64,000 nt of DNA from Bacilli bacterium (GCA_017405445.1 JAFRAK010000007.1:95689-159688); one strand, 5' to 3'. Shown: positions 1,826 through 47,719, counted from the stretch's first letter. The notes: generated from the sequence alone by a model not told the origin. Program-made: numbers and translations.

Positions 1826-1845
1826 TAAAAGGAGTGTGATACAAA

Positions 1846-4485: not shown

Positions 4486-4511
4486 TTCGAGAAGAGTAAG
4501 GTGGTGGTAAA

Positions 4512-6881: not shown

Positions 6882-6889
6882 GTGATAGA

Positions 6890-7675: not shown

Positions 7676-7735
7676 TTAATGACAGTTTAATGAATTTAAG
7701 ATATAATATAAGAGAAAAAGAAGGGAAGTCTTGTC

Positions 7736-16712: not shown

Positions 16713-16817
16713 AAAAATAATCTCCTCAAAAACATTTTATCATATTTTGTTTGATAATACTATTTTAAATTTGTAAAAATATTTAACGTAAACTAGTGTT
16801 AATTTGCTTATTTTTTA

Positions 16818-16846
16818 TAGACATCGTTTTTTCAAAAGTGTATAAT
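16818..16846 (+). promoter_or_regulatory. Sigma-A-type promoter of the surface-protein operon
   Basis: TAGACA (16818-23), a 17-nt spacer, then TATAAT (16841-46), about 40 nt upstream of the start codon. Confidence 0.5.
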
Positions 16847-16882
16847 TTATATAGAATTAGAAATAATAGAATATGAGAGGTT

Positions 16883-19800
16883 ATGTGTATGAGAAGGTTT
16901 TTTAGAAAGAAATTGAGGTCACTTTCAAAAGTAAAGATTAAAACAAAGAAATTAGGATTAATTTCTGTTTTTGCTGTTGCTATATTTGTGGTATCTATGA
17001 TAACTGCATTTGCTGATAGTGACGTTATACTAACTCTTACACCAACAATTTCTCCTGTTGGAGGCCATTATGTTTATCAACCTGGAGACACTGTTGAATT
17101 AACTTATTCTTTGAACTCTTCAAAAGCATGGAAAATAGCTGTCTTATCTATTGAATATGATTCTAATGTGTTTGAACATTTAGATGGTAATGTAACACAT
17201 GAAGATCCTGATACTGGAGACGATGTTGTTGATTATGGATTTGATCAAACAATTAGTGCAAGTAACTATAATATAATTCCAGCATTTGGTGATCCAGGTG
17301 TTTATCAGATGACTGTTCCTGTTATCTATAAATTAAATGATGCTAATGCAACAAAAGGAGCAGGTAATGTTACTTTTGGTAAGATTAAATTAAAAGTACG
17401 TGATGATGCAGTAGGTGGGGATACAACAATTAGTATTGTTGAAGGAAATAATAAAACATATGTATACGCCTTAGATGATACAGATTTATTTTCATACGAT
17501 GCAGATGATGTAACAGTAAGAATTGATGTTCCAATCGAAAGTTGGAGTCCAAATCCTACCTCACTTTCATTAGACTTAACAGCAAATTCTACTGGAAATA
17601 TTTCAATTGATTATTTACCTGTTACAGCATCAGAACCTGTACCTACTTTCCAATCAAGTAATACTAGTGTATGTACTGTAAATTCTACTACTGGTACAGT
17701 CACTGCAGTAGGAGTAGGAACATGTAATATTTCAGTTACAATAGATGGTGATACAACACCAAAAACTGTTCCAGTAACAGTAACAAATCATTTAACTAGT
17801 TTAACACTTGATAGTGAGTTAGAAACATTAAGTCAAGGAAATACTCATACATTTACAGTAACTACAACACCTGCAAATCCATCTGAAACAGCAAACCCTT
17901 CAGAAACTACTTATACTTATAATTGGGTAAGCAGTGATCCTTCAAAAGTTACAGTAACATCAACTAATGGAAATACTGCAACAGTTACAGCTACTGCTGC
18001 AACAGAAGTAGGACAACCTGTAACATTGACATGTTATGCAGTAATTAATGGAGTTCAATCTAGTACAATTTATACACAAGCAAATATAACTGTAATAATA
18101 CCATTAACTGGAGCTCATGCTCAAGATTCAAATATGACTTTAATAAAAGGTGTAGATGATGAAAAACAAATAGTAGTTGTATATGAACCAAGTGGAGCAA
18201 CTGAAAGACCAGAAATCACTTGGGAATCAGCTAATCCAAGTATCGTTTCAGTAAGCAACAGCGGTGTTATAACAGCAGTTACGAATAGTGGAGGAAATGC
18301 AATAACTGTTACTGGTACAATGCAAGCTTTAAATGGTAATACTTATACTGTTACGACAAATGTAACTGTTGAAGTACCACTTGAATCAGTAAGTGTAAAC
18401 CCATCAGAAGTAAATCTTTATGAAGGTCAATCACAATCTGTTGCAGAATCATATTTACCAGCTGATACATATCCACTTCCTGCATTAACATGGGCTACAA
18501 GTGATTCAAATGTTGCGACAGTATCTAATGGTACAATAACAGCAGTAAATGCTGGAACAGCAACAATTACTGCAACAAGAGGAACTGGTGCATCAGCAAA
18601 ATCTGCAACAGTTACAGTTCATGTATATACAGAAATTACAGGACTTGTAATGAGTGAACCATCTGCAACAATTTATACAAATGTCAATGGACAAAAAACA
18701 AAACAATTAACAGCTTCAATTCAACCTGCAGGAGCAGGAACAGATGCTGATAAAGTAATAACATGGACAAGCAGTGATGATAATATTGCAACTGTATCAA
18801 ATGGTTTAGTTACTGCAGTAGCACCTGGGTCTGTAACAATAACAGCAACAACAGGTAGTGGAGCTCAAGCAACAGCAACAATTACAGTTGAAAGAGTAGC
18901 AACTGCCTTTACAGTAACGAATGGTACTGATGTTATAGTAGAAAAAGGATCAACTCATACAATCCAAACTTCTATTTCAGGAAATCCTGATCCAATGCCA
19001 ACAATTACTTGGTCAGATCCAAGCACAAATCATGTAACAATCAATAAAACTACTGGTGAAGTTACAGCCGTTTCAAATGGAAATGCGACAATTACAGGAA
19101 CAATACCTAGTCAACCAAATCCATTAAGTGTAACAGTTAATATAACAGTAAGAACATCTCCTAATAGTGTAACAATTGATCAAGGAGATTATAAGAGAAT
19201 TAATAAAAATGAATCATTCACATTAACCGCAGTAAAAGATCCAGGAGATGCATCAGACAATATAGTTTGGTCATCAAGCGATTCTAATATAGTAAGTATT
19301 AATTCTTCAACTGGAGTTATTACTGGAGTTGCTATGGGAACTGCAACAATTACAGCAACATTAGGAAATAAAACTGATACAATTTCAGTAGAAGTATATG
19401 TACCAGTTCAAACATTTGAAATTAATGAAAATGATACAATTACAATTAATCAAGGTTCAGAAAAAACATTATCAAGAACAATTACACCTCAACCTTGTTC
19501 AGAAACTGTAATTACTTGGACTTCAAGTGATGATACAAAAGTATTAGTTGATTCTGATGGTAAGATTAGAGGAGTAGCAACTACATCTACACCAGTTACT
19601 ATTACAGGTTTAATTGGTGGAAAGAGCGATTCTATTCAAGTTAATGTTATCTTACCAGCTGATGGTATTACAATCCAAGGTGGAAATGAAATTGATGTTG
19701 AATTTGGAAGCAATCAACAATTAACAGCTCAAATAAGTCCTCCTGGAAGTACTGATACAGGAGTAACTTGGACATCAAGTAATCCAAATGTAGCAACAGT

Positions 19801-21571
19801 TGATCCAACAACAGGATTAGTTGAAACAGTTGCTACAGGATATACAATTATTACTGCAAGTGTTGGAACAGCACCTAATGTAGTTTCTGATACTATTAGA
19901 ATTAATGTAATTATTTCAATTAACTCTATTACTTTAAATGACGGAGAAACTTATTCAATTGCTAAAGATGCTGAGTATACTTTAGGTTATACATTAGATC
20001 CAAGTGATACAACATATCAAAATGTAACATGGACAAGTAGTGATTCAACAACAGTATCTGTAAACTCATCAGGAAAGATAAAAGGTCTAAAAAAAGGAAC
20101 TGCAACAATTACAGCTAAAGCAGGAAAATCTGGACAAGAAGTAACAGACTCCATTACTGTTACAGTATATATCTCAACATCTAGTATTAGTATTAATGGA
20201 GATTCAACTTTTACAATGACTAAAGGGTCAAATAAAACTCTAACTGCTACTGTAGAACCTTCAACCTCCGATCAAGATGTAACTTGGGAAACAAGTGATT
20301 CAACAATTGTTTCAGTAGTAAGAAATACAAGTAATCATAAGCAAGCAACGATAACTGCTAATAAAGTAGGAACTGCTACTATTACTGCTAGATCTGGTTC
20401 AAAAACTGCTACAGTAACCGTAACAGTAAACAATCCAGCTCAAACTGTAACAATCTCAGGTTCAGATTCAATTACAATCCATAGAGGATCTAATCAAAAC
20501 TTAACTGCTACAAAGATTCCAACTGATGCTGATGATCCTATTACATGGACATCAAGTAAACCTAGTGTAGCAACAGTAACTGTAATAAGTGAAGCAAATG
20601 GTGTTTCAACTGTAAGAGTAAATGCAGTTGGAAAAGGAGATACTGTAATTACTGCTAAATCTGGAAGTGCGTCAGATACAATAAATGTACATGTAGATGC
20701 TCCAATTACTGGTTTTGAATCAGATAGTTTGGAAGAAACAGTTCTAAAAGGTAAAAGCAAGCAATTATCATATCAAATTATTCCACAAGATACTTCAGAT
20801 ACAGTAAATATCACTTGGACAAGTCAAAATCCTGATATTGTTACTGTAAACAATGAAGGAAAAGTTACTGGAGTAAGTGCTGGAGAAGGAGTAGTAACTG
20901 CAACATTATCAGGATATACATTAACTTATACAATATCAGTAGGAACAATTCCAATTCAGTCAATTACTTTAGATAAAGATGATTTTAATTTAAGAAAAGG
21001 TTCTACTGAAAAACTAACATATACCGTTGTTCCTGAATCAACAACAGATCTATCAGATCCTGAATGGTTATCAAGTGATGAGTCTATCGTAACAGTTGAT
21101 GCAGATGGAAATGTAACTGGTGTAGTTGCGGGAGAAGCAACTATCACATTAAAAATGAATGGAACAACTTATGACCAAGTAACAATAACAGTAATAGAAA
21201 TTCCATTAACAGATATTACGATTACTACAGATTCTGGAGATGTAGATATTGGAGGACAAATGACAATTCATATTGTCGAAAACCCTGAAGATACTACAGA
21301 TGAAGTAGATTATACATTTGAATCAAGCGATGAGTCTATCGCAACAGTAGATGAAAATGGTGTCGTTAAAGGAATTAAAAACGGAACAGTAACAATTACT
21401 GTACATTCTTCGAATGGATTAGAAGATTCAATTCAATTAAATATTGTTACTCCACGAGATATCATAAATCCAAATACTGGAGTTAAATCTATTATTATAT
21501 ATATCATTAGTGGTATATGCTCATTACTAGGAGCAAGATTTATATTCAAGAAAAAGATTATGGTTAAATAA
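16883..21571 (+). CDS. Wall-sorted scaffold-like surface protein: N-terminal cohesin-like module + ~17 Big_2 Ig-like domains + NPNTG sorting signal
   Basis: Signal peptide ending AFA|DSD. Cohesin-like pattern: PGDTVELTYSL..KIAVLSIEYDSNVFEHL..GNVTFGKIKLKVRDDAVGGDTTISIV. Recurrent Big_2 signatures such as ITWTSSDDNIATVSNGLVTAVAPGSVTITAT. NPNTG (21467-21481) is followed by a TM helix and a KKKIMVK tail. The start could be ATG 16883 or ATG 16889. Confidence 0.75.
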   Translation: MCMRRFFRKKLRSLSKVKIKTKKLGLISVFAVAIFVVSMITAFADSDVILTLTPTISPVGGHYVYQPGDTVELTYSLNSSKAWKIAVLSIEYDSNVFEHLDGNVTHEDPDTGDDVVDYGFDQTISASNYNIIPAFGDPGVYQMTVPVIYKLNDANATKGAGNVTFGKIKLKVRDDAVGGDTTISIVEGNNKTYVYALDDTDLFSYDADDVTVRIDVPIESWSPNPTSLSLDLTANSTGNISIDYLPVTASEPVPTFQSSNTSVCTVNSTTGTVTAVGVGTCNISVTIDGDTTPKTVPVTVTNHLTSLTLDSELETLSQGNTHTFTVTTTPANPSETANPSETTYTYNWVSSDPSKVTVTSTNGNTATVTATAATEVGQPVTLTCYAVINGVQSSTIYTQANITVIIPLTGAHAQDSNMTLIKGVDDEKQIVVVYEPSGATERPEITWESANPSIVSVSNSGVITAVTNSGGNAITVTGTMQALNGNTYTVTTNVTVEVPLESVSVNPSEVNLYEGQSQSVAESYLPADTYPLPALTWATSDSNVATVSNGTITAVNAGTATITATRGTGASAKSATVTVHVYTEITGLVMSEPSATIYTNVNGQKTKQLTASIQPAGAGTDADKVITWTSSDDNIATVSNGLVTAVAPGSVTITATTGSGAQATATITVERVATAFTVTNGTDVIVEKGSTHTIQTSISGNPDPMPTITWSDPSTNHVTINKTTGEVTAVSNGNATITGTIPSQPNPLSVTVNITVRTSPNSVTIDQGDYKRINKNESFTLTAVKDPGDASDNIVWSSSDSNIVSINSSTGVITGVAMGTATITATLGNKTDTISVEVYVPVQTFEINENDTITINQGSEKTLSRTITPQPCSETVITWTSSDDTKVLVDSDGKIRGVATTSTPVTITGLIGGKSDSIQVNVILPADGITIQGGNEIDVEFGSNQQLTAQISPPGSTDTGVTWTSSNPNVATVDPTTGLVETVATGYTIITASVGTAPNVVSDTIRINVIISINSITLNDGETYSIAKDAEYTLGYTLDPSDTTYQNVTWTSSDSTTVSVNSSGKIKGLKKGTATITAKAGKSGQEVTDSITVTVYISTSSISINGDSTFTMTKGSNKTLTATVEPSTSDQDVTWETSDSTIVSVVRNTSNHKQATITANKVGTATITARSGSKTATVTVTVNNPAQTVTISGSDSITIHRGSNQNLTATKIPTDADDPITWTSSKPSVATVTVISEANGVSTVRVNAVGKGDTVITAKSGSASDTINVHVDAPITGFESDSLEETVLKGKSKQLSYQIIPQDTSDTVNITWTSQNPDIVTVNNEGKVTGVSAGEGVVTATLSGYTLTYTISVGTIPIQSITLDKDDFNLRKGSTEKLTYTVVPESTTDLSDPEWLSSDESIVTVDADGNVTGVVAGEATITLKMNGTTYDQVTITVIEIPLTDITITTDSGDVDIGGQMTIHIVENPEDTTDEVDYTFESSDESIATVDENGVVKGIKNGTVTITVHSSNGLEDSIQLNIVTPRDIINPNTGVKSIIIYIISGICSLLGARFIFKKKIMVK

Positions 21572-21629
21572 AAGGGTGGGAGAGGTCTTTCATCCTTTTT
21601 ACTCTATTTTAAGAACAGGAGGGATTATT

Positions 21630-24600
21630 ATGAAAAAGATCAGAAAAGTATTTTTATTGCTATTCTGTTTTTTTGCTTTCTTTCTATTTAATATGAATGT
21701 AGCACATGCTGATTCCACCCCTGTTTATTGGACTGTTTCTGGTTCTCCTATTACCACTGCATCAGGATTTACAAAAGTAGCTTTTGAAGATACATCACAA
21801 GTTCATACAACTATTTCATCATATACTTATTATAAAGATGCAACATGTGATAGCTTTATAACCCCATCTTATCAATTTTGTGATACGAATAGTGTACCAT
21901 TAGAGAATCACGTAATGATATATATTAGTAGTAATACATTATATATTCAGTTTAAAGGAACATTATATTTAAATGAAAATTCAACTAGTTTATTTTCTGG
22001 TTTAAGTCAAGGTAATGTTACTCAAATTACTGGTTTAGAATATGTTAATACTTCTAACGTAAAATCCATGGAAAAAATGTTTTATGCAAATAGAAAATTA
22101 ACATCTCTTGATTTGTCTCATTTTGATACTTCGCAAGTAACAAACATGAAAGATATGTTTGGTTATATGAGTACAATAACAACCTTAGATGTTTCTATGT
22201 TTGATACATCCAATGTTACCAATATGGAAGGAATGTTTCAAACACTTAAATCATTAACTACTCTTAAATTTTTTGATAATAATAATATAACTCATTTTAG
22301 TACGGCCAATGTAACGAATATGGCTAATATGTTTGCGGGATGTAATAGTTTAACATCTTTAGATTTAACCTTTTTTTCAACGGCAAACGTTGAAAATATG
22401 TCTTATATGTTTTGTGAAATGTCAGATTTAACATCATTAAACATCAGTAGTTTTAATACTTCAAATGTAACTGATATGTCTTATATGTTTGCTAAAATGT
22501 CTAGTATGACATCGATTCCGATTACTTATCTTACAACAGGTTCTGTTACAACAATGGAAGGAATGTTTCAAGATCTGACAAGTATAACTTCTTTGGATAT
22601 TTCTAGTTTTAATACTTATAATCTAGAAAATATGTCTCATATGTTCCAAGGAGATACTGCATTAACAAGCTTAAATCTTTCTGGTTTATATACCAATATG
22701 GTAGAAAATTATGAAAGTATGTTTGAAAATGTTACCAGTTTAACAACCTTAGATGTTTCAGGTTTTAATACAATTGGTGCGGAGAATATGTCAAGGATGT
22801 TTTATAACATGACATCTTTAACAAGTCTATCTGTGGCAAATTTTAATACTTCAAATGTTACAGATATGTCTTATATGTTTTATAATTTAATAGGTATTTC
22901 ATCTTTAAATGTTTCAAATTTCAATACAAGATATGTAACAAATATGGAAGGTATGTTTTCCAAATTACTAATTTCTACTCTAGATGTTTTGAATTTTAAC
23001 ACTTCAAATGTTACAAATATGAAAAGAATGTTTGAAGGAATGCCAAATATTCAAGTTTTAGATTTGAGTAGTTTTAATACTCGCTATGTAACAAATATGC
23101 AAGAAATGTTTGCCAATAATACTTCCCTTGAAACAATTTATGCTTCATCAACATGGACTACCTCTAGAATTTCAAGTTCTGGTGGTGGAAACATTTTCAT
23201 GGGGGATGTTAATTTAAAAGTTGCATACGGCGATCCTAGAGATCCATATCAAACTACATATAGTGCTGAAAAAGTGGATAAAAGATATGCTATTATAGAT
23301 TCCTTTAATACAGAAGGATATTTAAGTGTTCATTGGAGTATTTCAAGTTCCGTATATGAAATTTTATATTATGATGATTATGATTTTGATCAACCAGATA
23401 TGAAAGTAGATGCTTTACAAAATTATTTTGATACAAGTAATATTACATTTAATAATGTGACTCCATACTACAATTCGACAGAAGAATATCTATATGTTGT
23501 TTACAACAACTTAAATATCAGACGTTTTAAAGTAGTAAAACCAATTTTAGATATTGATATTTCACAAGGAGATATCTCAATCATCCGTGGAAGAACTCGC
23601 CAATTATCAGTAGATTTCGATCCAGCAGATACAACTTATGATAGAACAATTACTTGGGAAAGTGATGATACAAGTTTGCTTACAGTAGATGCAGATGGAA
23701 CAATTCATGCACTTCAAAAAGGAACGGTACATGTAACTGCAACATCAATAGATGGAAGAGTAATTGCAAACCCATATACTGGAGAAACAGATGATAGTAA
23801 ACAAGATACAATTGAGATTGAGATTTATATTCCAGTAGATACATTTGAATTTAAAGATGAGACTACTGTGGACTATCAAGGGGATGATGTGGTTGCGATT
23901 ATCCCAAGAGGGCATGGGGAAATCAATCCTTTTGATCATTATTCTTTTCAAAAACCAACACTTGAACCACATGATACAGTAGTTGATCCATTAGATGACA
24001 CAACAGAATCAACAAATATTACTTGGACAAGTGGAGATACAAGCATAGTAACAGTTGATCAAAATGGTACCATAACAGGTGTTTCACCAGGACATACAAC
24101 AATTACAGCATCTTTAGATAGTAACGCACGATATTTAGTTCCAAATACAGATGACGAAATACAAACAGGTTACTCCATTTCATATGATGTATGGGTTTAT
24201 ATCCCAATTGATACATTTACAATAGAACCATCCTATCGACTTTATTATGATGATTATGAATATAACCATCACCAATTAACAGAAGTACGTCAATCAGATA
24301 CTTATGATCATTATGAAGAACCAGGAACAATTACTTGGTCATCAAGTGATCCAACAGTAGTAACAATTGATCAAAATGGTAATATAACAGGTCTTAATAA
24401 AGAGGGTACTTCAACTATTACAGCAACAATTCCAAAAGGTTGGTCTAGAACTTCAACAGTAGATGTTAAGATTTTAGCTACTGGTTTAACTCTATCTATT
24501 AATGGAGAAGAACAAACAGTTAGTGATACAAAAACGTTAGAGTGGAAAGAATTCTTTACTTATGAAACAACTATTGCTCCTTCAAATTCATCTTATACAA

Positions 24601-27600
24601 ATATTACATGGGCATCCTCTGATACAAATGTAGCAACAGTAGATTCTAATGGAAAAGTAACTGCAACAGGTGCAGGAGATGCTGTTATAACGGCAACCCT
24701 ACATAATGCAGATAATGAAGGCTTAGCAAGAGATTTAAATATTTATGAATCAAGAAATATTCATGTTTTAAGACCAATTACAACATTCACAACAGCATTA
24801 GATCCAAATAGAAGTACTTTATATTTAGGAGACCCAGAAAATGAATATGATAGAGCACAATTAATACCAACATACAATAATGGAAATCCATATGATGTAT
24901 CAGGAGCATTAACACATACACTAACAAATAATCGTTTAACAATAGAAGAAATAAATTCACAAACTCATACAGCACAAATAATTGCAGTTTCAAAAGGATC
25001 AGAAAATATTCACACAAAAGTAGATCATTATCCAACATCATTTGATGATTCTGTATATGAAACTGATACAGCACTAACTATTAAGCAATTAGCTACGTCA
25101 TTTGCAATTACCAATCAAGCAGCAAATGAAACAAAAGAACTAGAATGGAAAGATACATTCACTTATACAACATCCATTTTACCGACAACATCAGATTATA
25201 CGAATGTTACATGGACATCATCTGATTCTAGTATTGTATCAGTAGATGCAAATGGAACAATAACAGCAGTTTCTCCAGGAACAGTAACAATAACTGCAAC
25301 ATTACATAATGCAGACGGAGAAGGCTTAGCAAGAGACTTAAACTTCTATGAAACAAGAACAGTAAAAGTACCAATACCAATTACAACATTCACAACAGCA
25401 TTAAATCCAAACAGAAATACTTTATATTTAGGAGACCCAGAGAATGAATATGATAGAGCACAATTAATCCCAACATACAATAATGGAAGCTCCTATGAAG
25501 TACCTGGAAATTTAACACATACACCAGCAAATGGTCGTGTAACGGTAACAGAAACAAGTTCACAAACTCATACAGCACAAATAATTGCTGTTTCAAAAGG
25601 ACAAGAAACGATTCATACAGATGTAACACATTATCCAACGTCATTTGATAATTCTGATTATTATACGGATACATCTTTAACAATCAAACAATTAGCAACA
25701 AGTTTTAATATTACCAATCAAGCAGCAAATGAAACAAAAGAACTAGAATGGAAAGATACATTCACTTATACAACGAGTTATTTACCAGCAACATCAGATT
25801 ATACGAATATAACTTGGGCATCATCTGATGATACGATTGTATCAGTAGATGCAAATGGAATGATTACTGCATTAGCACCAGGAACAGTAACGATAACAGC
25901 AACCCTACATAATGCAGATAATGAAGGTTTAGATAGAAATCTAAATCTAACACAAACAAGAACAGTAAAAGTACCAATACCAATTACATCATTTACAACA
26001 GCATTAAATCCAAATAGAAGTACTTTATATTTAGGAGATTCAGAATACGATCATTTAGATTTAGTACCAACATACAATAATGGAAATTCATATGAAGTAC
26101 CCGGAAATCTAACATGGACAACAACAAATAGTAATCTTATATCTATAATAGAAAAAAATTCACAAACTCATGTTGCAACAATTACAGCACTTAAAAAAGG
26201 AACAGATAATATTCATACAAAAGTAAATCATTATCCAACATCATTTGATGATTCTGTATATGAAACAGATACTGCAATTACTATAAAGCAATTAGCAACG
26301 TCATTTGAAATTACCAATCAAGCAGCTAATGAAACAAAAGAACTAGAATGGAAAGATACATTCACTTATACAACGAGTTATTTACCAGCATCATCAGATT
26401 ATACGAATGTTACTTGGACTTCATCTGATGATACGATTGTATCAGTAGATGCAAATGGAATGATTACTGCAGTTTCTCCAGGAACAGTAACAATAACCGC
26501 AACCCTACATAATGCAGATAACGAAGGATTAGAGAGAGACTTAAACTTCTATGAAACAAGAACAGTAAAAGTACCAATACCAATTACATCATTTACAACA
26601 GCATTAGATCCATCAAGAACAACATTATATATGGGAGATCCAGAAAATGAATATGATAGAGCACAATTAATCCCAACATACAATGGTGGAAGCTCCTACG
26701 AAGTACCTGGAAATCTAACATGGTCACTAACAAATGATCTTGTAACTGTAACAGAAACAAGTTCACAAACTCATACAGCCCAAATAATTGCTGTTTCAAA
26801 AGGACAAGAAACAATTCATACAAAAGTAGATCATTATCCAACAGCATTTGATGATTCAGTATATGAAACAGATACAGCACTAACCATTAAACAGTTAACA
26901 ACAAGCTTTAATATTACCAATCAAGCAGCAAATGAAACAAAAGAATTAGAGTGGAAAGATACATTCACTTATACAACATCAATATTACCGACAACATCAG
27001 ATTATACGAATGTTACTTGGACATCATCTGATGATACGATTGTTTCAGTAGATGCAAGTGGAACAATAACAGCAGTTTCTCCAGGAACAGTAACGATAAC
27101 CGCAACTCTACATAATGCAGATAATGAAGGTTTAGATAGAAATCTAAATCTAACACAAACAAGAACAGTAAATGTACCAATTCCAATTACATCATTTACA
27201 ACAGCATTAGATCCTTCAAGAACAACATTATATATGGGAGACCCAGAGAATGAATATGATAGAGCACAATTAATCCCAACATACAATAATGGAAATCCAT
27301 ATGAAGTATCTGGAAATATAACACACACCCCAGAAAATGATCATGTAACTGTAACAGAAACAAGTTCACAAACTCATACAGCACAAATCATAGCTGTTTC
27401 AAAAGGACAAGAAACGATTCATACAAAAGTAGATCATTATCCAACATCATTTGATGATTCTGTATATGAAACAGATACTGCAATTACTATTAAGCAATTA
27501 GCTACGTCATTTGAAATTACCAATCAAGCAGCAAATGAAACAAAAGAACTAGAATGGAAAGATACATTCACTTATACAACGAGTTATTTACCAGCAACAT

Positions 27601-30600
27601 CAGATTATACGAATGTTACTTGGGCATCATCTGATGATACGATTGTTTCAGTAGATGCAAATGGAACAATAACAGCAGTTGCTCCAGGAACAGTAACGAT
27701 AACCGCAACCCTACATAATGCAGATAACGAAGGATTAGAGAGAGACTTAAACTTCTATGAAACAAGAACAGTAAAAGTACCAATACCAATTACAACATTC
27801 ACAACAGCATTAAGTCCAAACAGAAATACTTTATATTTAGGAGATCCAGAGAATGAATATGATAGGGCACAATTAATCCCAACATACAATAATGGAAGCT
27901 CCTACGAAGTACCTGGAAATATAACACACACCCCAGCAAATAATCATGTAACTGTAACAGAAACAGATGTAGAAACTCATGAAGCACAAATAATTGCAGT
28001 TTCAAAAGGACAAGAAACGATTCATACAGATGTAACACATTATCCAACGTCATTTGATAATTCTGATTATTATACGGATACATCTTTAACAATCAAACAA
28101 TTAGCAACGTCATTCGAAATTACCAATCAAGCAGCTAATGAAACAAAAGAACTAGAATGGAAAGATACATTCACTTATACACCATCCATTTTGCCAACAA
28201 CATCAGATTATACGAATATAACTTGGACATCATCTGACGATACGATTGTATCAGTAGATGCAAATGGAATGATTACTGCATTATCACCAGGAACAGTAAC
28301 AATAACCGCAACATTACATAATGCAGATAACGAAGGTTTAGATAGAAATCTAAATCTAACACAAACAAGAACAGTAAAAGTTCCAATACCAATCACAACA
28401 TTCACAACATCATTAAGTCCAAATAGAAGTACTTTATATTTAGGAGATTCAGAATATGATCATTTAGATATAGTACCAACATATAATAATGGAGATTCAT
28501 ACGATATAGATGGAAGCTTGACTTGGACACCAGCAAATGGACATGTAACCGTAACTGAAAAAACACCAATTACGAATCAACATATTGCAACAATCCAAGC
28601 AATTACAAAAGGACAAGAAAGTATTAATACAAAAGTAAATCATTATCCTTCATCCTTTGATGATTCTGTATATGAAACAAATACAGCAATTACAGTTAAA
28701 CAACTTGCTTTAAGTTTAGAAATTAATAATCAAAGTAGTTCTACAACAAAGAATATGAAAGTAGGAGAGACTTTCTTATATCAAACAACGATTAGTCCTG
28801 ATTCTTCAGATTATACGAATATAACTTGGACATCATCTGATGATACGATTGTCTCAGTAGATGCAAGTGGAACAATAACAGCAGTTGCTCCAGGGGATGC
28901 TGTAATAACGGCAACCCTACATAATGCAGATAATGAAGGTTTAGATAGAAATCTAAATATAGAATTAACAAGAAATGTTCATGTAGTAAAAGAAATAAGT
29001 GAATTTACTTTAAATCCAACAAATTATACAGTTTATACAAATGAAAGTTTAGCTGGACATACTGTACAATTACAACCAACAATTGGACCAGTAGGATATG
29101 AAGAAACTCCACATATTTCATGGAGTAGTGCAGATGAAGATATCGCAACAGTTTCTCAAAATGGAACAGTCACTGGACACAATATGGGAAGTACTACTGT
29201 TACAGGAACACTAACTATTGATGATTCCACAAATGTCTTTACAGTAACTGCAAATATAACTGTTGAAACATTGATAGAAACATTTGAATTAGAATCACCA
29301 TCTTCTGTTACATTAGAATTAGGAGGATCTCATCATATTGTTACAGAGATTACTCCACAAATAACTTCAGAATCACAAGCAATAACATGGACAACAGGAG
29401 ATAGTAACGTTGCAACAGTTACAAATGGAGAAGTACATGCAGTAGGAGTTGGAACAACTTCAATTACTGGTACATTAATTTCTCAAGTATTAGGCACAAC
29501 AACAATAACAGTAGATGTTTCAGTAATGACATCGATTACAAGATTTGAATTGGATGTAGTGAGTCTTGAAACTTTAATACCAGGACAATCTCATCAATTA
29601 GTAGCTACAATAGAACCATCTAGTGCAACAAATAAACAAATTGAATGGTCTTCATCAAATCCTCAAGTTGCATCTGTAACAGATGGATTAGTAGTAGCAA
29701 ATACTGTTGGAACAGCAACAATTACAGCAACAATTAGAAATGCTACCTTAAATGGTGATAGATCTATAACAATACCTGTAAGAGTATTAAGAAAAATAGA
29801 TAGTATTTCAGTATCTCCATCAAATATTACTTTAGTATATGGTACAAGTGAAGCTGAAGCTAATCTAGAAGCAACAATTCTACCAGATAATGCAGAACAA
29901 GATAAAACGATTACTTGGAGAAGTAGCGATGATAGTGTAGTAACAGTTTCTCAAAATGGTAAGATTACTGCGGTAGCCAAAGGTACTGCAACGATAACTG
30001 CTAATTTATCAAATGGAATGGCAGCTACATGTGAAGTAACAGTCTTTGTACCAATTACTACTTATGAAGTAACAAATGGAACAGAAATCGAATTATATAA
30101 AGATCAAACTCATACAATTGAAACTAGAATTTTACCAAATGATCCATCAGTATCAAAAGTTATTAATTGGACATCAGATGATGATACTATTGCAACAGTT
30201 TCTTCAAATGGTACAGTAACAGCAGTAGGCTTTGGAACAACAACGATAAGAGGTACACTTGAAGATGATGAAGAAGTAACAGTATCTATAAAAGTAATTA
30301 GACCAATTAATAATGTTACAATTTCACAAAGAACATTAACTTTAGATAGAGGCGATTCACAAAATGATCATGCAACATTGAGCTTATCAATTGATCCTCC
30401 AGAAGCAGATGGAAACAAAACAGTTCAATGGAGATCAAGTGATGATACTGTCGCAACAGTAGATGAAAATGGATTAGTAACAGCAGTAGGAAATGGAACT
30501 GCAACAATAACTGGTTATATTGATAATGAGTATGTACAAGAAGAAAAGAGTGATTCTTGTGAAGTAACAGTAGTTGGAATAATCTCTAGTATCTCCATTT

Positions 30601-31298
30601 TAGAAGGTAGTGAGATTAATGTCACAAAAGGAAGAACAGTTCAACTACAAACTTCAATTTTCCCTGATAATCCTACTGAAACACCTACATTGACATGGTC
30701 TAGTACAGATACAAGTGTCGCAACAGTAAATTCCTACGGAGTAGTAACAGGAAAAGACAGAGGAGATGCAACGATTAAGGTAAAAGTAGGTAACACTCAA
30801 AATGCAGTAGAAGCAACAATTTTAGTACACGTAATTGTACCAATCACAAGATTCTCTATCTCACCAGTTGATTTTGATTTATTACCAAATGATACAAAAG
30901 AACTGAGAGTAACAATTACTCCATCTAATACAACAGAATTAAAGAATGTTTCTTGGTCTGTTGAAGATCCTAGTATCGCAACAGTAGATGAAAATGGAGT
31001 AGTAACTGCACAATCATTGGGAGAAACTACTATCACAGGAACATTACCAAATGGTATGTCTACAACTGTAACAGTTCATGTAACATTAACTCCTAGGTTA
31101 ACAAAAAGAGGAGACTTTAATCGAGATGATACTGTTAATTTAAATGATGTTGTCGTAGGTTTAAGAAAAATATTTGGTTATGTACCAATAGAAACAGACG
31201 ATTACGCTATAGGTGATTTAAATGGTGATGGAGTAATTAATATTTCAGACATTTATACTTTGTTACGTTATGTATTTGGATACATAGATAGTATTTAA
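21630..31298 (+). CDS. Giant (3222 aa) secreted adhesin: DUF285-type LRRs + many Ig-like (Big_2) domains + C-terminal type I dockerin
   Basis: ATG 21630 follows AGGAGGG, and the GTG-initiated extension from 21576 was rejected. Signal peptide MKKIRKVFLLLFCFFAFFLFNMNVAHA|DS. About 14 units of the LDxSxFNTSNVTxMxxMF repeat. Big_2 motifs occur throughout. The terminal GDFNRDDTVNLNDVVVGLRKIFG...GDLNGDGVINISDIYTLLRYVFG is a duplicated Ca-binding loop-helix (dockerin). There is no sorting signal and no TM anchor. Confidence 0.85.
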   Translation: MKKIRKVFLLLFCFFAFFLFNMNVAHADSTPVYWTVSGSPITTASGFTKVAFEDTSQVHTTISSYTYYKDATCDSFITPSYQFCDTNSVPLENHVMIYISSNTLYIQFKGTLYLNENSTSLFSGLSQGNVTQITGLEYVNTSNVKSMEKMFYANRKLTSLDLSHFDTSQVTNMKDMFGYMSTITTLDVSMFDTSNVTNMEGMFQTLKSLTTLKFFDNNNITHFSTANVTNMANMFAGCNSLTSLDLTFFSTANVENMSYMFCEMSDLTSLNISSFNTSNVTDMSYMFAKMSSMTSIPITYLTTGSVTTMEGMFQDLTSITSLDISSFNTYNLENMSHMFQGDTALTSLNLSGLYTNMVENYESMFENVTSLTTLDVSGFNTIGAENMSRMFYNMTSLTSLSVANFNTSNVTDMSYMFYNLIGISSLNVSNFNTRYVTNMEGMFSKLLISTLDVLNFNTSNVTNMKRMFEGMPNIQVLDLSSFNTRYVTNMQEMFANNTSLETIYASSTWTTSRISSSGGGNIFMGDVNLKVAYGDPRDPYQTTYSAEKVDKRYAIIDSFNTEGYLSVHWSISSSVYEILYYDDYDFDQPDMKVDALQNYFDTSNITFNNVTPYYNSTEEYLYVVYNNLNIRRFKVVKPILDIDISQGDISIIRGRTRQLSVDFDPADTTYDRTITWESDDTSLLTVDADGTIHALQKGTVHVTATSIDGRVIANPYTGETDDSKQDTIEIEIYIPVDTFEFKDETTVDYQGDDVVAIIPRGHGEINPFDHYSFQKPTLEPHDTVVDPLDDTTESTNITWTSGDTSIVTVDQNGTITGVSPGHTTITASLDSNARYLVPNTDDEIQTGYSISYDVWVYIPIDTFTIEPSYRLYYDDYEYNHHQLTEVRQSDTYDHYEEPGTITWSSSDPTVVTIDQNGNITGLNKEGTSTITATIPKGWSRTSTVDVKILATGLTLSINGEEQTVSDTKTLEWKEFFTYETTIAPSNSSYTNITWASSDTNVATVDSNGKVTATGAGDAVITATLHNADNEGLARDLNIYESRNIHVLRPITTFTTALDPNRSTLYLGDPENEYDRAQLIPTYNNGNPYDVSGALTHTLTNNRLTIEEINSQTHTAQIIAVSKGSENIHTKVDHYPTSFDDSVYETDTALTIKQLATSFAITNQAANETKELEWKDTFTYTTSILPTTSDYTNVTWTSSDSSIVSVDANGTITAVSPGTVTITATLHNADGEGLARDLNFYETRTVKVPIPITTFTTALNPNRNTLYLGDPENEYDRAQLIPTYNNGSSYEVPGNLTHTPANGRVTVTETSSQTHTAQIIAVSKGQETIHTDVTHYPTSFDNSDYYTDTSLTIKQLATSFNITNQAANETKELEWKDTFTYTTSYLPATSDYTNITWASSDDTIVSVDANGMITALAPGTVTITATLHNADNEGLDRNLNLTQTRTVKVPIPITSFTTALNPNRSTLYLGDSEYDHLDLVPTYNNGNSYEVPGNLTWTTTNSNLISIIEKNSQTHVATITALKKGTDNIHTKVNHYPTSFDDSVYETDTAITIKQLATSFEITNQAANETKELEWKDTFTYTTSYLPASSDYTNVTWTSSDDTIVSVDANGMITAVSPGTVTITATLHNADNEGLERDLNFYETRTVKVPIPITSFTTALDPSRTTLYMGDPENEYDRAQLIPTYNGGSSYEVPGNLTWSLTNDLVTVTETSSQTHTAQIIAVSKGQETIHTKVDHYPTAFDDSVYETDTALTIKQLTTSFNITNQAANETKELEWKDTFTYTTSILPTTSDYTNVTWTSSDDTIVSVDASGTITAVSPGTVTITATLHNADNEGLDRNLNLTQTRTVNVPIPITSFTTALDPSRTTLYMGDPENEYDRAQLIPTYNNGNPYEVSGNITHTPENDHVTVTETSSQTHTAQIIAVSKGQETIHTKVDHYPTSFDDSVYETDTAITIKQLATSFEITNQAANETKELEWKDTFTYTTSYLPATSDYTNVTWASSDDTIVSVDANGTITAVAPGTVTITATLHNADNEGLERDLNFYETRTVKVPIPITTFTTALSPNRNTLYLGDPENEYDRAQLIPTYNNGSSYEVPGNITHTPANNHVTVTETDVETHEAQIIAVSKGQETIHTDVTHYPTSFDNSDYYTDTSLTIKQLATSFEITNQAANETKELEWKDTFTYTPSILPTTSDYTNITWTSSDDTIVSVDANGMITALSPGTVTITATLHNADNEGLDRNLNLTQTRTVKVPIPITTFTTSLSPNRSTLYLGDSEYDHLDIVPTYNNGDSYDIDGSLTWTPANGHVTVTEKTPITNQHIATIQAITKGQESINTKVNHYPSSFDDSVYETNTAITVKQLALSLEINNQSSSTTKNMKVGETFLYQTTISPDSSDYTNITWTSSDDTIVSVDASGTITAVAPGDAVITATLHNADNEGLDRNLNIELTRNVHVVKEISEFTLNPTNYTVYTNESLAGHTVQLQPTIGPVGYEETPHISWSSADEDIATVSQNGTVTGHNMGSTTVTGTLTIDDSTNVFTVTANITVETLIETFELESPSSVTLELGGSHHIVTEITPQITSESQAITWTTGDSNVATVTNGEVHAVGVGTTSITGTLISQVLGTTTITVDVSVMTSITRFELDVVSLETLIPGQSHQLVATIEPSSATNKQIEWSSSNPQVASVTDGLVVANTVGTATITATIRNATLNGDRSITIPVRVLRKIDSISVSPSNITLVYGTSEAEANLEATILPDNAEQDKTITWRSSDDSVVTVSQNGKITAVAKGTATITANLSNGMAATCEVTVFVPITTYEVTNGTEIELYKDQTHTIETRILPNDPSVSKVINWTSDDDTIATVSSNGTVTAVGFGTTTIRGTLEDDEEVTVSIKVIRPINNVTISQRTLTLDRGDSQNDHATLSLSIDPPEADGNKTVQWRSSDDTVATVDENGLVTAVGNGTATITGYIDNEYVQEEKSDSCEVTVVGIISSISILEGSEINVTKGRTVQLQTSIFPDNPTETPTLTWSSTDTSVATVNSYGVVTGKDRGDATIKVKVGNTQNAVEATILVHVIVPITRFSISPVDFDLLPNDTKELRVTITPSNTTELKNVSWSVEDPSIATVDENGVVTAQSLGETTITGTLPNGMSTTVTVHVTLTPRLTKRGDFNRDDTVNLNDVVVGLRKIFGYVPIETDDYAIGDLNGDGVINISDIYTLLRYVFGYIDSI
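22027..23150 (+). repeat. Array of ~75-nt (25-aa) DUF285/BspA-like leucine-rich repeats (coding)
   Basis: The periodic consensus L(T/D)SLD(L/V)SxFNTSNVTxM(S/E)xMF is read about 14 times in the translation. Confidence 0.7.
24474..28990 (+). repeat. Coding tandem array: 7 full + 1 partial units of 600-615 bp (200-205 aa, two Ig-like domains each)
   Basis: The unit landmark (I/V)KQL(A/T)TSF recurs at 25089, 25692, 26292, 26895, 27498, 28101 and 28704, with a diverged first unit at 24474. Internal units are near-identical at the nucleotide level and the edge units are more diverged. Identical antisense pseudo-ORFs at 25390 and 27799 show a 2409-bp super-period. Confidence 0.9.
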
Positions 31299-31337
31299 AA
31301 AAGTACTTTGTTTTAGAAATATTTCAAAGTACTTTTT
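31299..31337 (+). terminator. Rho-independent terminator after the giant adhesin gene
   Basis: 12-bp stem AAAAGTACTTTG / CAAAGTACTTTT with a 14-nt loop, running into a T-tract. Confidence 0.6.
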
Positions 31338-31382
31338 GAATAATACTAATAAATAGAATTATAAATAGTAGTAGGTGATAAA

Positions 31383-32183
31383 ATGAAAAAATTATTTTTA
31401 TTGATATTATTTTATATCATATTAATTCCAAATGTTTATGCAGAAGAAAAAACAGTTTTTTCAATTGAAAGTAAAAACTCTGCACCAGGAAAAGAAGTGA
31501 CAATTAATGTAAGTATGCGTAATAATCCAAAATTTGAATTACTTAGTTTTCAATTACCAATTGATACAACACAAGTAGAATTCTTAGAATGTAATGTGAT
31601 AGGTTTAAAAAAAGCTACATTAAAAGGTTGCTCAATCAACCCTTATAATACCATAGTTTTTTATGCTCTTACGATGTATGCAGATGAAGATAAATTACTA
31701 ACGAATACCGGTAAAATTGCAGAAATTCATTTGAAAGTAAAAGAAGGAGCCAATAAAGATGTTCCATTAAGTTTAAATATAACAGATTATGGAAAAAGTG
31801 ATACCGAAAAATTAGATTATGAGATAGAAAATGGATATATCCGTATTGCAGGAGATATTAAAACAAAAGTAATTAATGAAAAAGAAGATTTGAGTAAAGA
31901 ACTCGGAAAAAATGTAGGAACTGAATCAATCACATGGGAAAGTAGTGATGAAGAAACCGCAACTGTAGATCCGGAAGGAAATGTAGAATTTAGAGGTTCT
32001 GGAAATGCTACTATAATCGCAAAAGATGTAGAAGGAAATATTGTTTATAAAAAGAATTATTTTGTCAATACAAAAGATAATCATATGAAAGAAATAAAAA
32101 TTGTAATTCCTATTGTATTAATCTCTTCTTTATTATTATTCTTTCTATTCAATAAGAAAAGGAAATTAAAAAATGAAAATTAA
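31383..32183 (+). CDS. Membrane-anchored cohesin-like protein (cohesin-like module + one Big_2 + C-terminal TM anchor)
   Basis: Signal peptide LIPNVYA|EEK. Cohesin-like pattern: PGKEVTINVSMRNNPKFELLSFQLPIDTTQVEFL...IVFYAL...GKIAEIHLKVKEGANKDVPLSLNI...ENGYIRI. Big_2: ITWESSDEETATVDPEGNVEFRGSGNATIIA. The C-terminal IVIPIVLISSLLLFFLF + NKKRKLK has no NPxTG motif. Confidence 0.6.
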   Translation: MKKLFLLILFYIILIPNVYAEEKTVFSIESKNSAPGKEVTINVSMRNNPKFELLSFQLPIDTTQVEFLECNVIGLKKATLKGCSINPYNTIVFYALTMYADEDKLLTNTGKIAEIHLKVKEGANKDVPLSLNITDYGKSDTEKLDYEIENGYIRIAGDIKTKVINEKEDLSKELGKNVGTESITWESSDEETATVDPEGNVEFRGSGNATIIAKDVEGNIVYKKNYFVNTKDNHMKEIKIVIPIVLISSLLLFFLFNKKRKLKNEN

Positions 32184-32919
32184 AAGAATATTACAATATA
32201 TTCTTTATTTTCTGTTTATTGGAATATTTATCTATTCTATTTATAATATTTATATCTTAGTAACAAATCATCACTCTAATAAAAAAGAAGTGGAAGAAAT
32301 ACAAGAAGAAGTTATTATCAATAAAGAAGAAATAAATAACATACCAACAGAAAAAAAAGAAGATGACGAATATCAATTACCAGAACTCGAATTAGATTTT
32401 AAAAAGCTAAAAGAATTGAATTCTGATACAGTAGGTTGGATTGAAATAAGAAATACAAATATTAATTATCCATTTGTACAGGCAAACGATAATGATTATT
32501 ATTTAACACATTCTTTTTATCGATATGAGAATGTGGAAGGATGGATTTATTTAAATTATTTAAATAATCCTAATCTAAGAGATCCCAATTCTATTCTATT
32601 TGGACATGATACTCATGGAAGGAATATGTTTAGTGATTTAAAAAAGTTATATGAAGGATTACTTGGAAATTATATTCCTATCACAATCTATTTAGAAAAT
32701 GAAACCTATCATTATGAAACAGTTGCGATATTCCTAGTAGAAGAACACGATAATCAGTTTTTAAAAGCAAAATTATCACAAAAAGATTTAGAAGATGCTT
32801 TATCAAAATCAAAATATGATTTTAATAAAAAAGTAGATACAACTAATCATTTTATTACTTTATCTACTTGCTATAACTCATCAAGTCAAAAAGTAATCTT
32901 AATTGCAGTACAAATATAA
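32173..32919 (+). CDS. srtB: Class B sortase
   Basis: N-terminal TM helix. DTVGWIEIRNTNINYPFVQANDNDYYLTHSF, NSILFGHD (catalytic His) and TLSTCY (catalytic Cys, codon 32869-71) closely parallel S. aureus SrtB (DIVGWIKLSGTSLNYPVLQ..., NTILYGHH, TLSTCE). It overlaps the upstream gene by 11 nt. Confidence 0.85.
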   Translation: MKIKRILQYILYFLFIGIFIYSIYNIYILVTNHHSNKKEVEEIQEEVIINKEEINNIPTEKKEDDEYQLPELELDFKKLKELNSDTVGWIEIRNTNINYPFVQANDNDYYLTHSFYRYENVEGWIYLNYLNNPNLRDPNSILFGHDTHGRNMFSDLKKLYEGLLGNYIPITIYLENETYHYETVAIFLVEEHDNQFLKAKLSQKDLEDALSKSKYDFNKKVDTTNHFITLSTCYNSSSQKVILIAVQI

Positions 32920-32947
32920 AAACAAGGCGTTGCCTTGTTTTATTTTT
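32920..32947. terminator. Bidirectional terminator between the convergent srtB and rhomboid genes
   Basis: AAACAAGGC gtt GCCTTGTTT, flanked by an A-run on the 5' side and a T-run on the 3' side. Confidence 0.7.
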
Positions 32948-33542
32948 AAAAGAAACTAGTATGTGTTAAAAAGAATATTCCAAATAATAATCCACAGATT
33001 GCTCCTATTAAATGTCCATCATGATATATTTTTGATTTTCTCTCAAGTAAAGATCCTTTTACTTCACCAATGACATAGAAAATACAGATTAAGATAACAG
33101 TAAGAGGTATTTTACCTTCAGAAATATTGGAAAAAGAACTAAGTACAATTAACATATAAACATTTCCACTTGCACCTAAAATAATATTATTATCAAAAAT
33201 AAGATTATAGAAAGCAATCACAAGAGAAGTGATTAAAAACATAAGAATTAAATTAACACTTCCATATTTTTCTTCTATCATAGGTCCTATTAATAAAATA
33301 TATAAAAAATTACTCACAAAATGATCCCAATCTTTATGACCAATACAATGGGTAAATAAACGAATATAAGTTAGTGGATTCCACCAAGAAGATCGATAAT
33401 TAGAAAACAATAATTTATTGGAAGAACCTCTCGTAATAAAGTTTAAAAACCAAGCTCCTAAACTAATAAACAAATAAGTTAAAATAACTTTAGAATTATA
33501 ATCAAATTGAAGACTATTAAAATCAAAATTCATAAACATCAT
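32946..33542 (-). CDS. Rhomboid-family intramembrane serine protease
   Basis: Polytopic protein. HCIGHKDWDHFVSNFLYILLIGPMIE (HxxxN region), the catalytic GASGNVY motif and the downstream HLIGAICGLLFG (His helix). Confidence 0.8.
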   Translation of the reverse strand: MMFMNFDFNSLQFDYNSKVILTYLFISLGAWFLNFITRGSSNKLLFSNYRSSWWNPLTYIRLFTHCIGHKDWDHFVSNFLYILLIGPMIEEKYGSVNLILMFLITSLVIAFYNLIFDNNIILGASGNVYMLIVLSSFSNISEGKIPLTVILICIFYVIGEVKGSLLERKSKIYHDGHLIGAICGLLFGIFFLTHTSFF

Positions 33543-33614
33543 CCTCTAGTATCATTATACTATATTGTTTGAGAAATTTGTAGAAATAAGTTATAATGAA
33601 ATTAGGAGAATAAT

Positions 33615-33980
33615 ATGAACAAACTAGATCAATATAAAATAGAAGAACTAAAGAATATACAAGAATTATTAATGAGTTTTAAAACAATAGAGGAAGCAAT
33701 AAAAACAATAGAAAATAAAATATTTCAAAAAGAAGAAGAACAAAAGAAATCCATAAACATAAGATTCAATCTAGAATTAATGGAAAAATTACAAATATTA
33801 GAACCATCAGAATTAAAACTAGTCAAAGAACAAGGAATAAAAAATCTTCAAGAATTATTAGAATTAGATCTAGATTCGATTCCAAACATATCTATTTCTA
33901 CAAAAAAAAGTATTGAAGAAAAAAGAAGATTTTATGATATGAGTACTTTTGAAGAAAAAAAGCATAATAAGAAGAGGTGA
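33615..33980 (+). CDS. Hypothetical charged protein with a possible helix-hairpin-helix segment
   Basis: AGGAG RBS. K/E-rich. LKLVKEQGIKNLQELLELDLDSIPNISISTKKSIEEK resembles HhH / RNAP alpha-CTD-like motifs, but only weakly. Confidence 0.4.
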   Translation: MNKLDQYKIEELKNIQELLMSFKTIEEAIKTIENKIFQKEEEQKKSINIRFNLELMEKLQILEPSELKLVKEQGIKNLQELLELDLDSIPNISISTKKSIEEKRRFYDMSTFEEKKHNKKR

Positions 33981-33984
33981 TATA

Positions 33985-46243: not shown

Positions 46244-46265
46244 TTAAGGGAAAGGAGATTATAAT

Positions 46266-47714: not shown

Positions 47715-47719
47715 ATATA

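Follow-up and report, generated by a model that had tools for sequence, protein, structure and literature searches.

A predicted cohesin-dockerin system for adhesin display, linked to a class-B-type sortase gene, in a Bacilli bacterium

Can the plug-and-socket principle of the cellulosome be used to mount an adhesin, rather than an enzyme, on the surface of a cell? This question is raised by four genes, here called A to D, that lie between positions 16,818 and 32,947 of a stretch of 64,000 nucleotides (nt) of DNA from a Bacilli bacterium (GCA_017405445.1, JAFRAK010000007.1:95689-159688). We refer to this whole stretch as the window; its source is a gut bacterium that is uncultured and low in GC. 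We think it probable that the four genes encode a self-contained, non-enzymatic cohesin-dockerin system for surface display, consisting of two cohesins, an adhesin with a dockerin, and a class-B-type sortase. That is, the cellulosome principle is most likely varied here and not replaced, in that an adhesin takes the place of the enzyme on the cell surface.

The four open reading frames (ORFs) all lie on the plus strand at the coordinates given in an initial annotation of the window, and both ORF calls and translations bear out its description of four co-directional genes. The genes and their principal modules are as follows.

16883-21571, plus strand: gene A, a predicted stalk scaffoldin of 1562 amino acids (aa), with a signal peptide, an N-terminal cohesin, a Big_2 array and an NPNTG sorting signal
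17012-17545, plus strand: divergent cohesin module of A, aa 44-221 (178 aa), found by Pfam, by profile and by AlphaFold2 (AF2)/Foldseek
21467-21568, plus strand: cell-wall sorting signal of A, with NPNTG, a hydrophobic segment and RFIFKKKIMVK
21630 (ATG)-31298, plus strand: gene B, a secreted cargo of 3222 aa, with a signal peptide, a DUF285 leucine-rich-repeat (LRR) head, an array of Big_2/immunoglobulin-like (Ig-like) domains and a C-terminal dockerin
31110-31295, plus strand: type-I-like dockerin of B, in which FGY comes after each of the two Ca-loop/helix repeats (DFNRDDTVNLND... and DLNGDGVINISD...)
31383-32183, plus strand: gene C, with a signal peptide, a cohesin at aa 26-146, Big_2 at aa 176-215, and a C-terminal transmembrane (TM) segment with a basic tail
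32173-32919, plus strand: gene D (srtB), a class-B-type sortase that overlaps C by 11 nt, with His145, Cys233 (in TLSTC) and Lys240

Modules of the four proteins

The proteins were compared with those of related loci. The comparative set consisted of the window and the loci L005, L007, L009 and L010/L011, among which the window, L007 and L010 are complete.

The identity of the cohesin in protein C is firm. The Pfam Cohesin family (PF00963, cut-off 24.1 bits) matched the whole protein with 30.7 bits and the module alone with 32.9 bits, and Big_2 matched it with 27.3 bits. The AF2 model of C had predicted local distance difference test (pLDDT) values of 82-96 across the cohesin module. When this model was compared with the PDB, the top 48 matches were all cohesins, with target-normalised TM-scores that reach 0.81 and, for the best matches, root-mean-square deviations (rmsd) of 2.4-3.5 A; at the head of the list were the type I cohesins 1aoh, 4uyp and 5nrm, with TM-scores of 0.77-0.81 on the same scale. 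In the family alignment, no conserved sorting motif was found at the C-terminus of protein C. Pfam, AF2 and the alignment thus agree with the initial annotation, which had assigned to C a second cohesin-like module, a single Big_2 domain and a TM anchor without a sorting motif. An identical protein C occurs on contigs of ruminant-gut-type metagenomes.

Protein B is the cargo of the proposed system. Pfam gave 267 bits for DUF285 and 581 bits for Big_2, the latter over 19 stretches, and no anchor was found in the 3222 aa of its sequence. Translation and domains therefore bear out its earlier description as a 3222-aa LRR/Ig protein without an anchor of its own. A length of 3222 aa recurs in two independent assemblies, so that an isolated assembly error does not account for the giant ORF.

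The tail of B can be identified as a dockerin, firmly at the level of the family, from its sequence. The repeats DFNRDDTVNLND and DLNGDGVINISD fit two units of about 22 residues, each with a Ca-loop having Asp or Asn at positions 1, 3, 5, 9 and 12 and with a helix. In Pfam, the tail is borderline: scanned alone, it scored 24.1 bits against Dockerin_1 (PF00404), of which the cut-off is 22.9, and EF-hand families gave weak matches on it. The dockerins of the relative at L010 scored 25.6-37.3 bits against Dockerin_1. A profile built from six tails of related loci was compared with the PDB, and 27 of its 30 matches were dockerins; against 1ohz_B, the type I dockerin of Clostridium thermocellum Xyn10B, the family profile aligned from end to end and free of gaps over 56 positions, with an E-value (E) of 1.6e-7. 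The duplicated Ca-binding loop-helix had been read as the signature of a type I dockerin, and these matches uphold that reading. An X-module, which is a feature of types II and III, was not found before the dockerin of B: Big_2 occupies aa 3072-3149, and after a short linker the dockerin begins at aa 3161. In known dockerins, internal symmetry of the repeats is associated with dual binding modes. By analogy, the two alike repeats of B, each ending in FGY, would have the kind of symmetry that is linked to dual binding.

As for protein A, translation more likely begins at ATG 16889, since GAGAGG lies 9 nt upstream of it and gene callers give a protein of 1560 aa. Pfam supports about 15 Big_2 stretches in A, fewer than the approximately 17 domains counted before. 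Its N-terminal module, scanned alone, matched Cohesin with 25.0 bits against the cut-off of 24.1. The tips of all three A-type orthologues (window, L007 and L010) each matched Cohesin, with a best E of 2.2e-8, and no other family was common to them; the protein P0008 has a precomputed PF00963 match. A profile of the A module, compared with the PDB, matched one cohesin, 5g5d (E 0.0017). In Foldseek, the top 13 matches of the module's model were cohesins, but the TM-scores were 0.28-0.55 and the rmsd was 6-8 A. We accept the tip module of A as a divergent cohesin on the strength of these comparisons, and it is the weakest of the module calls. The match of the module when scanned alone and the matches of the orthologous tips agree with the cohesin-like pattern noted in the initial annotation.

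Homologues of the A tip were few. A word-indexed search with the N-terminal 232 aa of A gave no match, A itself included; a 90% cluster representative that lacks this N-terminus would possibly explain the missing self-match. An exhaustive HMMER search with the A module against 1.84 billion representatives gave three matches, of which P0006 alone was meaningful, while P0005 and P0007 were rejected as spurious repeat proteins. P0006 (528 aa) has two tandem A-type cohesin-like modules, a long coiled coil and a C-terminal Dockerin_1 match of 39.6 bits. It is the sole distant relative of the A tip module that was found, and its host is an unrelated, Ala-rich organism.

Taken together, the N-terminal modules of A and C both match PF00963, and that of C folds as a cohesin in its model.

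At its other end, A reads NPNTG-VKSIIIYIISGICSLLGA-RFIFKKKIMVK, that is, a motif, a hydrophobic segment and a basic tail as in sortase substrates. The translation confirms the NPNTG, TM and KKK elements that had been assigned to A. The corresponding motif is SPNTG in the L007 orthologue and SPKTG in that of L010. Two published accounts cover (S/P)PXTG and NPKTG signals (PMC5118464; PMC4155245), and the [NS]PxTG signals of A and its orthologues are of the kind that class B sortases use.

Protein D matched the Pfam Sortase family (PF04203) with 38.8 bits against a cut-off of 26.6. All 15 of its matches in the PDB were sortases, nearly all of them named SrtB, and its best solved relatives were the SrtB proteins of Bacillus anthracis, Clostridioides difficile and Listeria monocytogenes. 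His145 and Cys233 (TLSTC) are invariant in the five orthologous sortases. The 11-nt overlap of srtB with C, which had been described before, was confirmed by the ORF coordinates.

Two further proteins of the window carry signals similar to that of A. One is a secreted protein of 684 aa (11453-13507), without a Pfam or NCBIfam match, which ends in DIINPQTG, a TM segment and KIKKKR. Because the IINPxTG context matches that of A, this protein is probably another substrate of the same sortase. The other is encoded by the ORF at 53958-56141, in which a signal peptide and a domain of about 120 aa precede a full sorting signal of INPETG, a TM segment and KLKNSKNK. After this signal the ORF runs on, without a stop, through another stretch that resembles a signal peptide and through a DUF285 LRR protein; a gene fusion, the loss of a stop codon or the use of an internal start could explain this. 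The initial annotation spoke of a dedicated operon that includes a class B sortase. We rejected a dedicated sortase because of the two additional signals of the type INPxTG, TM and basic tail (INPQTG and INPETG) in the window. Judged by these motifs, D probably serves more than the A-D genes.

Conservation of the locus and exchange of the cargo

Relatives of this locus are rare. Among 5.8 billion proteins, three relatives of protein C were found. The alignment of C was also scanned against 185,579 species genomes, which gave one locus, L010, from a metagenome-assembled genome labelled 'Bacilli bacterium', and against metagenomes, which gave one locus, L011, from the human gut. The comparative set is small because each scan gave a single locus and both belong to the same species.

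The arrangement of the genes is conserved. In all five loci, the gene for the cohesin with a TM segment overlaps the sortase gene, and a gene with a dockerin tail lies directly upstream of this pair in L005, L007, L009 and L010/L011, wherever the contig reaches. In addition, each of the three complete loci has, ahead of the cargo, an A-type anchor with a cohesin, a Big_2 array and a sorting signal.

The body of the cargo, on the other hand, is exchanged. The cargo of L007 is a protein of 669 aa that has no Big_2, DUF285 or other Pfam domain and is joined to its dockerin by a Gly/Pro linker; its dockerin is 59% identical to that of B, though the two cargo bodies are unrelated. L010/L011 has four to five different small dockerin proteins around an A-type anchor (SPKTG), a C-type cohesin and SrtB; one of these carries half a dockerin, and a weak CAP-like match was found for one. 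Because the dockerin is kept while the cargo bodies are swapped, it behaves as a portable tag that accompanies these cohesins, and this fits what a functional cohesin-dockerin pair predicts. We observed at 8268-9809 of L010 a cargo of 513 aa with a single terminal dockerin repeat (GDMNNNGKLDLNDVIILLKKVLGII*), which is a naturally truncated dockerin; the longest ORF of its counterpart in L011 is 402 aa, from an internal GTG.

Pfam showed no carbohydrate-active domain on any of the seven dockerin-bearing proteins across the loci, and within the 64-kb window no dockerin other than that of B was found. The earlier statement that no glycoside hydrolase is present thus holds for the visible sequence, and it extends to the dockerin proteins of the related loci, none of which has a carbohydrate-active enzyme (CAZyme) domain.

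The window and L007 were then compared for sequence identity. The flanking tryptophanyl-tRNA synthetase (TrpRS) and rhomboid proteins were 90% and 78% identical, respectively. Within the operon, the values were 62% for SrtB, 54% for C by BLASTP (50% in the family alignment) and 35% for A, and the cargo body was replaced; the cohesin of A was 32% identical. By these identities, the operon is a hypervariable island for surface proteins at a fixed chromosomal site. In L010 (126-18031) and L011 (171-20236), the kit lies between a TM-M23 peptidase on one side and a sigma70_r4 protein, two tyrosine recombinases and uvrB on the other. This gene content suggests that the kit sits there in the accessory slot of an integrative element.

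The proposed assembly and its alternatives

We propose that the four proteins would work together as follows. The SrtB-type enzyme D would cleave the NPNTG motif of A and join A to peptidoglycan. Protein A would then form a stalk of about 15 Ig-like domains that carries its cohesin at the distal, N-terminal tip. Protein B would be exported by the Sec pathway, and its C-terminal, Ca-binding, type-I-like dockerin would plug into a cohesin, presumably in a Ca-dependent manner. Because the C-terminal dockerin is the plug, the DUF285 LRR head of B would point outward as the adhesive end, toward a ligand that the head would bind. If A and B are joined end to end, the fibre would be well over 100 nm long, as estimated from the usual size of an Ig-like domain. 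Protein C, the gene of which would be translationally coupled to the sortase gene, would provide a second, membrane-proximal cohesin. It may be an alternative anchor, or it may be a loading dock that catches the cargo at the membrane.

It is the linkage of their genes that suggests the binding of B to A or C. The comparison of the loci speaks most strongly for the proposed assembly: the proposal that an adhesin is held by a cohesin is strengthened because genes with dockerin tails adjoin the pair of cohesin-TM and sortase genes across the loci. As for the partner, which may be A, C or both, the order of the genes (A, cargo, C-srtB) and the conserved A-type anchors speak for A. The tight coupling of C and srtB speaks for C, and so does the fact that C and the dockerin have diverged to a similar degree.

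Several points weigh against this display system. The visible part of this genome is the 64-kb window, and within it a single dockerin stands against two cohesins. In the scan of full-length B, Dockerin_1 at aa 3161-3215 scored 18.8 bits, below the cut-off of 22.9. The cohesin of A is borderline, and the scan of full-length A does not report Cohesin; the AF2 model of its module, made from an alignment of four rows, is of low confidence, with a mean pLDDT of 58.7. Compared as profiles, the A-type and C-type cohesins show hardly any match (E 0.012 over 38 columns), and because this comparison is so weak, we do not call the two close paralogues. D scored 134.9 bits against the class B sortase model TIGR03064, below the equivalog cut-off of 153.75. 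Furthermore, the canonical Arg after the Cys is missing in the five orthologous sortases, and an invariant Lys240 is found instead. Counted from the Cys, Lys240 is at Cys+7, and counted from the C-terminus it is the ninth residue, which is the position of Arg217 in C. difficile SrtB (PMC5118464). This equivalence, and with it the statement that Lys replaces Arg, is a matter of position counts only, because the HMMER alignments end at the Cys of TLSTC. From the conserved residues, D and its orthologues may be a clade of Cys-His-Lys sortases.

A more far-reaching form of the proposal is possible, and we put it forward tentatively, as doubtful: the locus would make a two-piece, swappable fibrillar adhesin, in which a universal stalk anchored by sortase receives exchangeable dockerin heads, C is the loading dock, and the whole kit is mobile and hypervariable. 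The heads would range from the 3222-aa LRR fibre to small proteins that lack an assigned function, and the composite fibres would be well over 100 nm in length. C, coupled to the Lys-variant SrtB, would dock the cargo during assembly. The kit would evolve as a hypervariable island and could ride an integrative element into relatives in the human gut.

If the binding proposed for the display system is true, the locus would be a clean natural case in which the plug and socket are used purely to display an adhesin, outside the classical producers of cellulosomes. A covalent stalk with a non-covalent extension is one suggested route to very long adhesins. The adhesive head could be exchanged with the anchor untouched, which fits the swapping of cargo between close relatives. 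Display systems of this type may also move horizontally, as is hinted by a relative from the human gut in which the kit lies on an apparent integrative element. A small orthogonal cohesin-dockerin pair and an SrtB variant with Lys for the catalytic Arg could also be of use in engineering.

Among the alternatives, the one that survives best is that the dockerin of B pairs with the membrane cohesin C alone, and that A is an independent fibrillar adhesin, anchored by sortase, of which the tip is for an external ligand or for other dockerins. The overlap of C and srtB is the invariant core of all loci, and the divergence of the dockerin between the window and L007 (59% identity) is close to that of C (54% or 50%) and far less than that of the A cohesin (32%). 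A tip domain, a stalk and a sortase signal make up the standard layout of a fibrillar adhesin. A has this layout, and the cohesin call on A is marginal. However, the three complete loci come from distant lineages, and each has an A-type anchor upstream of the cargo; all three A-type tips match Cohesin; and P0006 combines a two-copy, A-related module with a dockerin. Moreover, the small cargos of L010 would be confined to the wall if C were the sole socket, because the reach of C is that of a cohesin and one Big_2 domain. We thus regard pairing with C alone as unlikely.

It might also be supposed that the locus is a piece of a larger, enzyme-bearing system similar to a cellulosome or an amylosome, and that dockerin-bearing glycoside hydrolases encoded elsewhere share these cohesins. 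The visible part of the genome is 64 kb, the source is a metagenome of ruminant-gut type, and most dockerin proteins of rumen organisms either are enzymes or have no known function (PMC6487960). Against this, the one dockerin in the window belongs to an LRR/Ig protein, CAZyme domains are absent from all seven dockerin proteins seen across the loci, and the L010/L011 island has four to five dockerin proteins of which none is a CAZyme. Since each scaffold protein has a single cohesin, there is no multi-cohesin integrator of enzymes. A hidden enzyme complex of this kind therefore seems improbable.

Another explanation is that the operon is an accessory of a mobile element and serves PrgB-like cell-cell aggregation in conjugation, rather than adhesion to the host or feed. 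The M23 peptidase, sigma70_r4, two tyrosine recombinases and uvrB that flank the kit in L010/L011 would fit this, and so would the type IV secretion system (T4SS) genes at 62-10141 of the window, which are followed by the NPQTG-anchored protein. The setting in the window, L007 and L009 is nevertheless chromosomal, with trpS upstream (in the window and L007) and the rhomboid gene downstream (in all three). In the window, DedA, RmuC-like and trpS genes stand between the T4SS genes and the operon, and housekeeping genes lie downstream of it. Because trpS synteny with L007 is kept, the operon is unlikely to be part of the neighbouring T4SS element in this lineage, and we consider a role in conjugation quite improbable.

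Finally, it is very improbable that the modules do not pair at all and that the dockerin, as a Ca-dependent EF-hand cap, serves to stabilise a B that is simply secreted or shed: the module scores are all near the Pfam cut-offs and EF-hand families weakly match the B tail, but this tail is kept on unrelated cargo bodies, always beside cohesin genes, and its profile matches true dockerins over the full length of two repeats, well ahead of EF-hand proteins.

We next compared the display system with known ones. The closest is that of Ruminococcus flavefaciens, in which ScaE, a cohesin anchored by sortase through LPXTG, holds the cellulose-binding CttA (PMC2930009; PMC7456326). The parallel between a sortase-anchored cohesin and an adhesin with a dockerin, which the initial annotation had drawn, is borne out by these papers. 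ScaE with CttA and ScaB, as well as the XDoc:CohE pair of R. champanellensis, share with our locus a single wall-anchored cohesin, a non-enzymatic substrate binder tagged with a C-terminal dockerin, and clustered genes. They differ in several respects. ScaE has LPXTG, whereas here NPNTG is found and an SrtB-type enzyme is encoded in the locus. CttA and ScaB have a type III dockerin with an X-module, whereas in B the Big_2 domain abuts a type-I-like dockerin and no X-module was found. ScaE belongs to an enzyme-bearing cellulosome of Clostridia, whereas here no enzymes were seen and the sole relative among reference genomes is labelled Bacilli. In our locus, moreover, about 15 Ig domains make up the stalk of the scaffold, and there is another cohesin, anchored in the membrane.

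The SIGN-LRR-Doc proteins of R. flavefaciens FD-1 are likewise secreted leucine-rich-repeat proteins with a terminal dockerin (PMC2930009), but they are small parts of a large cellulosome inventory, whereas B is a 3222-aa DUF285/Big_2 fibre with its own cohesins and sortase. OlpA and OlpC of C. thermocellum resemble our cohesin proteins in that they are surface proteins with one cohesin that hold single type I dockerin proteins on the cell, and their cohesins (3ul4 and 4dh2) were among the good structural matches to C. OlpA and OlpC are anchored non-covalently by SLH domains. They differ from our locus in this anchoring and in that their partners are enzymes. The use of cohesin and dockerin outside fibre degradation has a likeness in non-cellulosomal modules, and the cohesins of Clostridium perfringens and Archaeoglobus fulgidus (2w1n, 2jh2 and 2xdh) were among the fold matches of C. 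A survey of rumen metagenomes also found that most dockerin proteins are not CAZymes and that non-enzymatic ones are common (PMC6487960). As for the sortase, D resembles C. difficile SrtB and the B. anthracis SrtB/IsdC pair, which are or include its best solved homologues, in having TLSTC and putative [NS]PxTG substrates; it differs in its invariant Lys for Arg, in its score below the TIGR03064 cut-off and in the coupling of its gene to a cohesin gene. In full-text searches of open-access papers, we found no description of a stalk scaffoldin, a giant adhesin, a membrane cohesin and SrtB in combination.

Transcription signals, repeats and neighbouring genes

The remaining features of the locus are as follows.

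16818-16846, plus strand: promoter-like site of sigma-70 type, TAGACA-17-TATAAT, upstream of gene A, by match to the consensus
21570-21599, plus strand: stem-loop of 13 pairs that overlaps the stop codon of A (-14.4 kcal/mol, z -2.7)
25083-28700, plus strand: six tandem repeat units in B, 200-201 aa (about 603 nt) each, with 78-92% nucleotide identity
31298-31337, plus strand: A+T-rich stem-loop directly after B (-13.4 kcal/mol, z -4.7), followed by UUUUU
32919-32941, no strand assigned: hairpin resembling a bidirectional terminator, between srtB and the rhomboid gene that converges on it (-11.8 kcal/mol, z -4.3)

The initial annotation placed a promoter at 16818-16846. This site is indeed the joint best match in 16600-33700, with 11 of 12 consensus positions; it is a match to the consensus only, and sites of this class are not enriched (87 found, 102.6 expected from shuffles).

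The hairpin terminator claimed after the second gene is a real stem-loop by its folding energy and its U-run. It is a putative terminator or attenuator ahead of C-srtB, and the terminator scan omits it because it is too A+T-rich. A stem-loop follows the cargo gene at the same position in L005, L007, L009 and L010, with different sequences, and a U-run follows it in three of these four loci. The stem-loop at the stop codon of A may partly terminate transcription between A and B. Because a stem-loop trails the cargo gene in all five loci, A to D are probably not transcribed as one simple unit. The hairpin, conserved in position, separates A-B from C-srtB, and together with the stem-loop at the end of A this corrects the earlier reading of the four genes as one operon. 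Scans with Rfam and for tRNA genes gave no matches.

The repeats in B were measured by script; their period of 603 nt exceeds the limit of Tandem Repeats Finder, hence the absence of a match there. They are a likely site of variation in repeat number and of assembly collapse in other metagenomes.

Downstream of the operon, 32946-35331 of the window contains the gene for a rhomboid-family protease, convergent with srtB, a position that is kept in L007 and L009; it is followed by an ORF of 121 aa and then by a CPBP/Rce1-like intramembrane protease. Upstream, about 6 kb from the operon, the conjugation/T4SS set at 62-10141 comprises a TrbL_4-like protein, a VirB4-like ATPase, a SpoIID-domain protein and a type IV coupling protein, and this set is followed by a DUF6273 protein. 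Farther downstream, 45578-50273 holds a duplicated gene pair (221 and 482 aa; 251 and 562 aa) without a Pfam match. The longer partners have an N-terminal helical region, a Pro/Thr/Ser-rich linker, a Gly/Ala-rich TM segment and an acidic C-terminal domain. This duplicated pair is followed, at 50642-52360, by a Pro/Glu/Thr-rich repeat protein of 572 aa.

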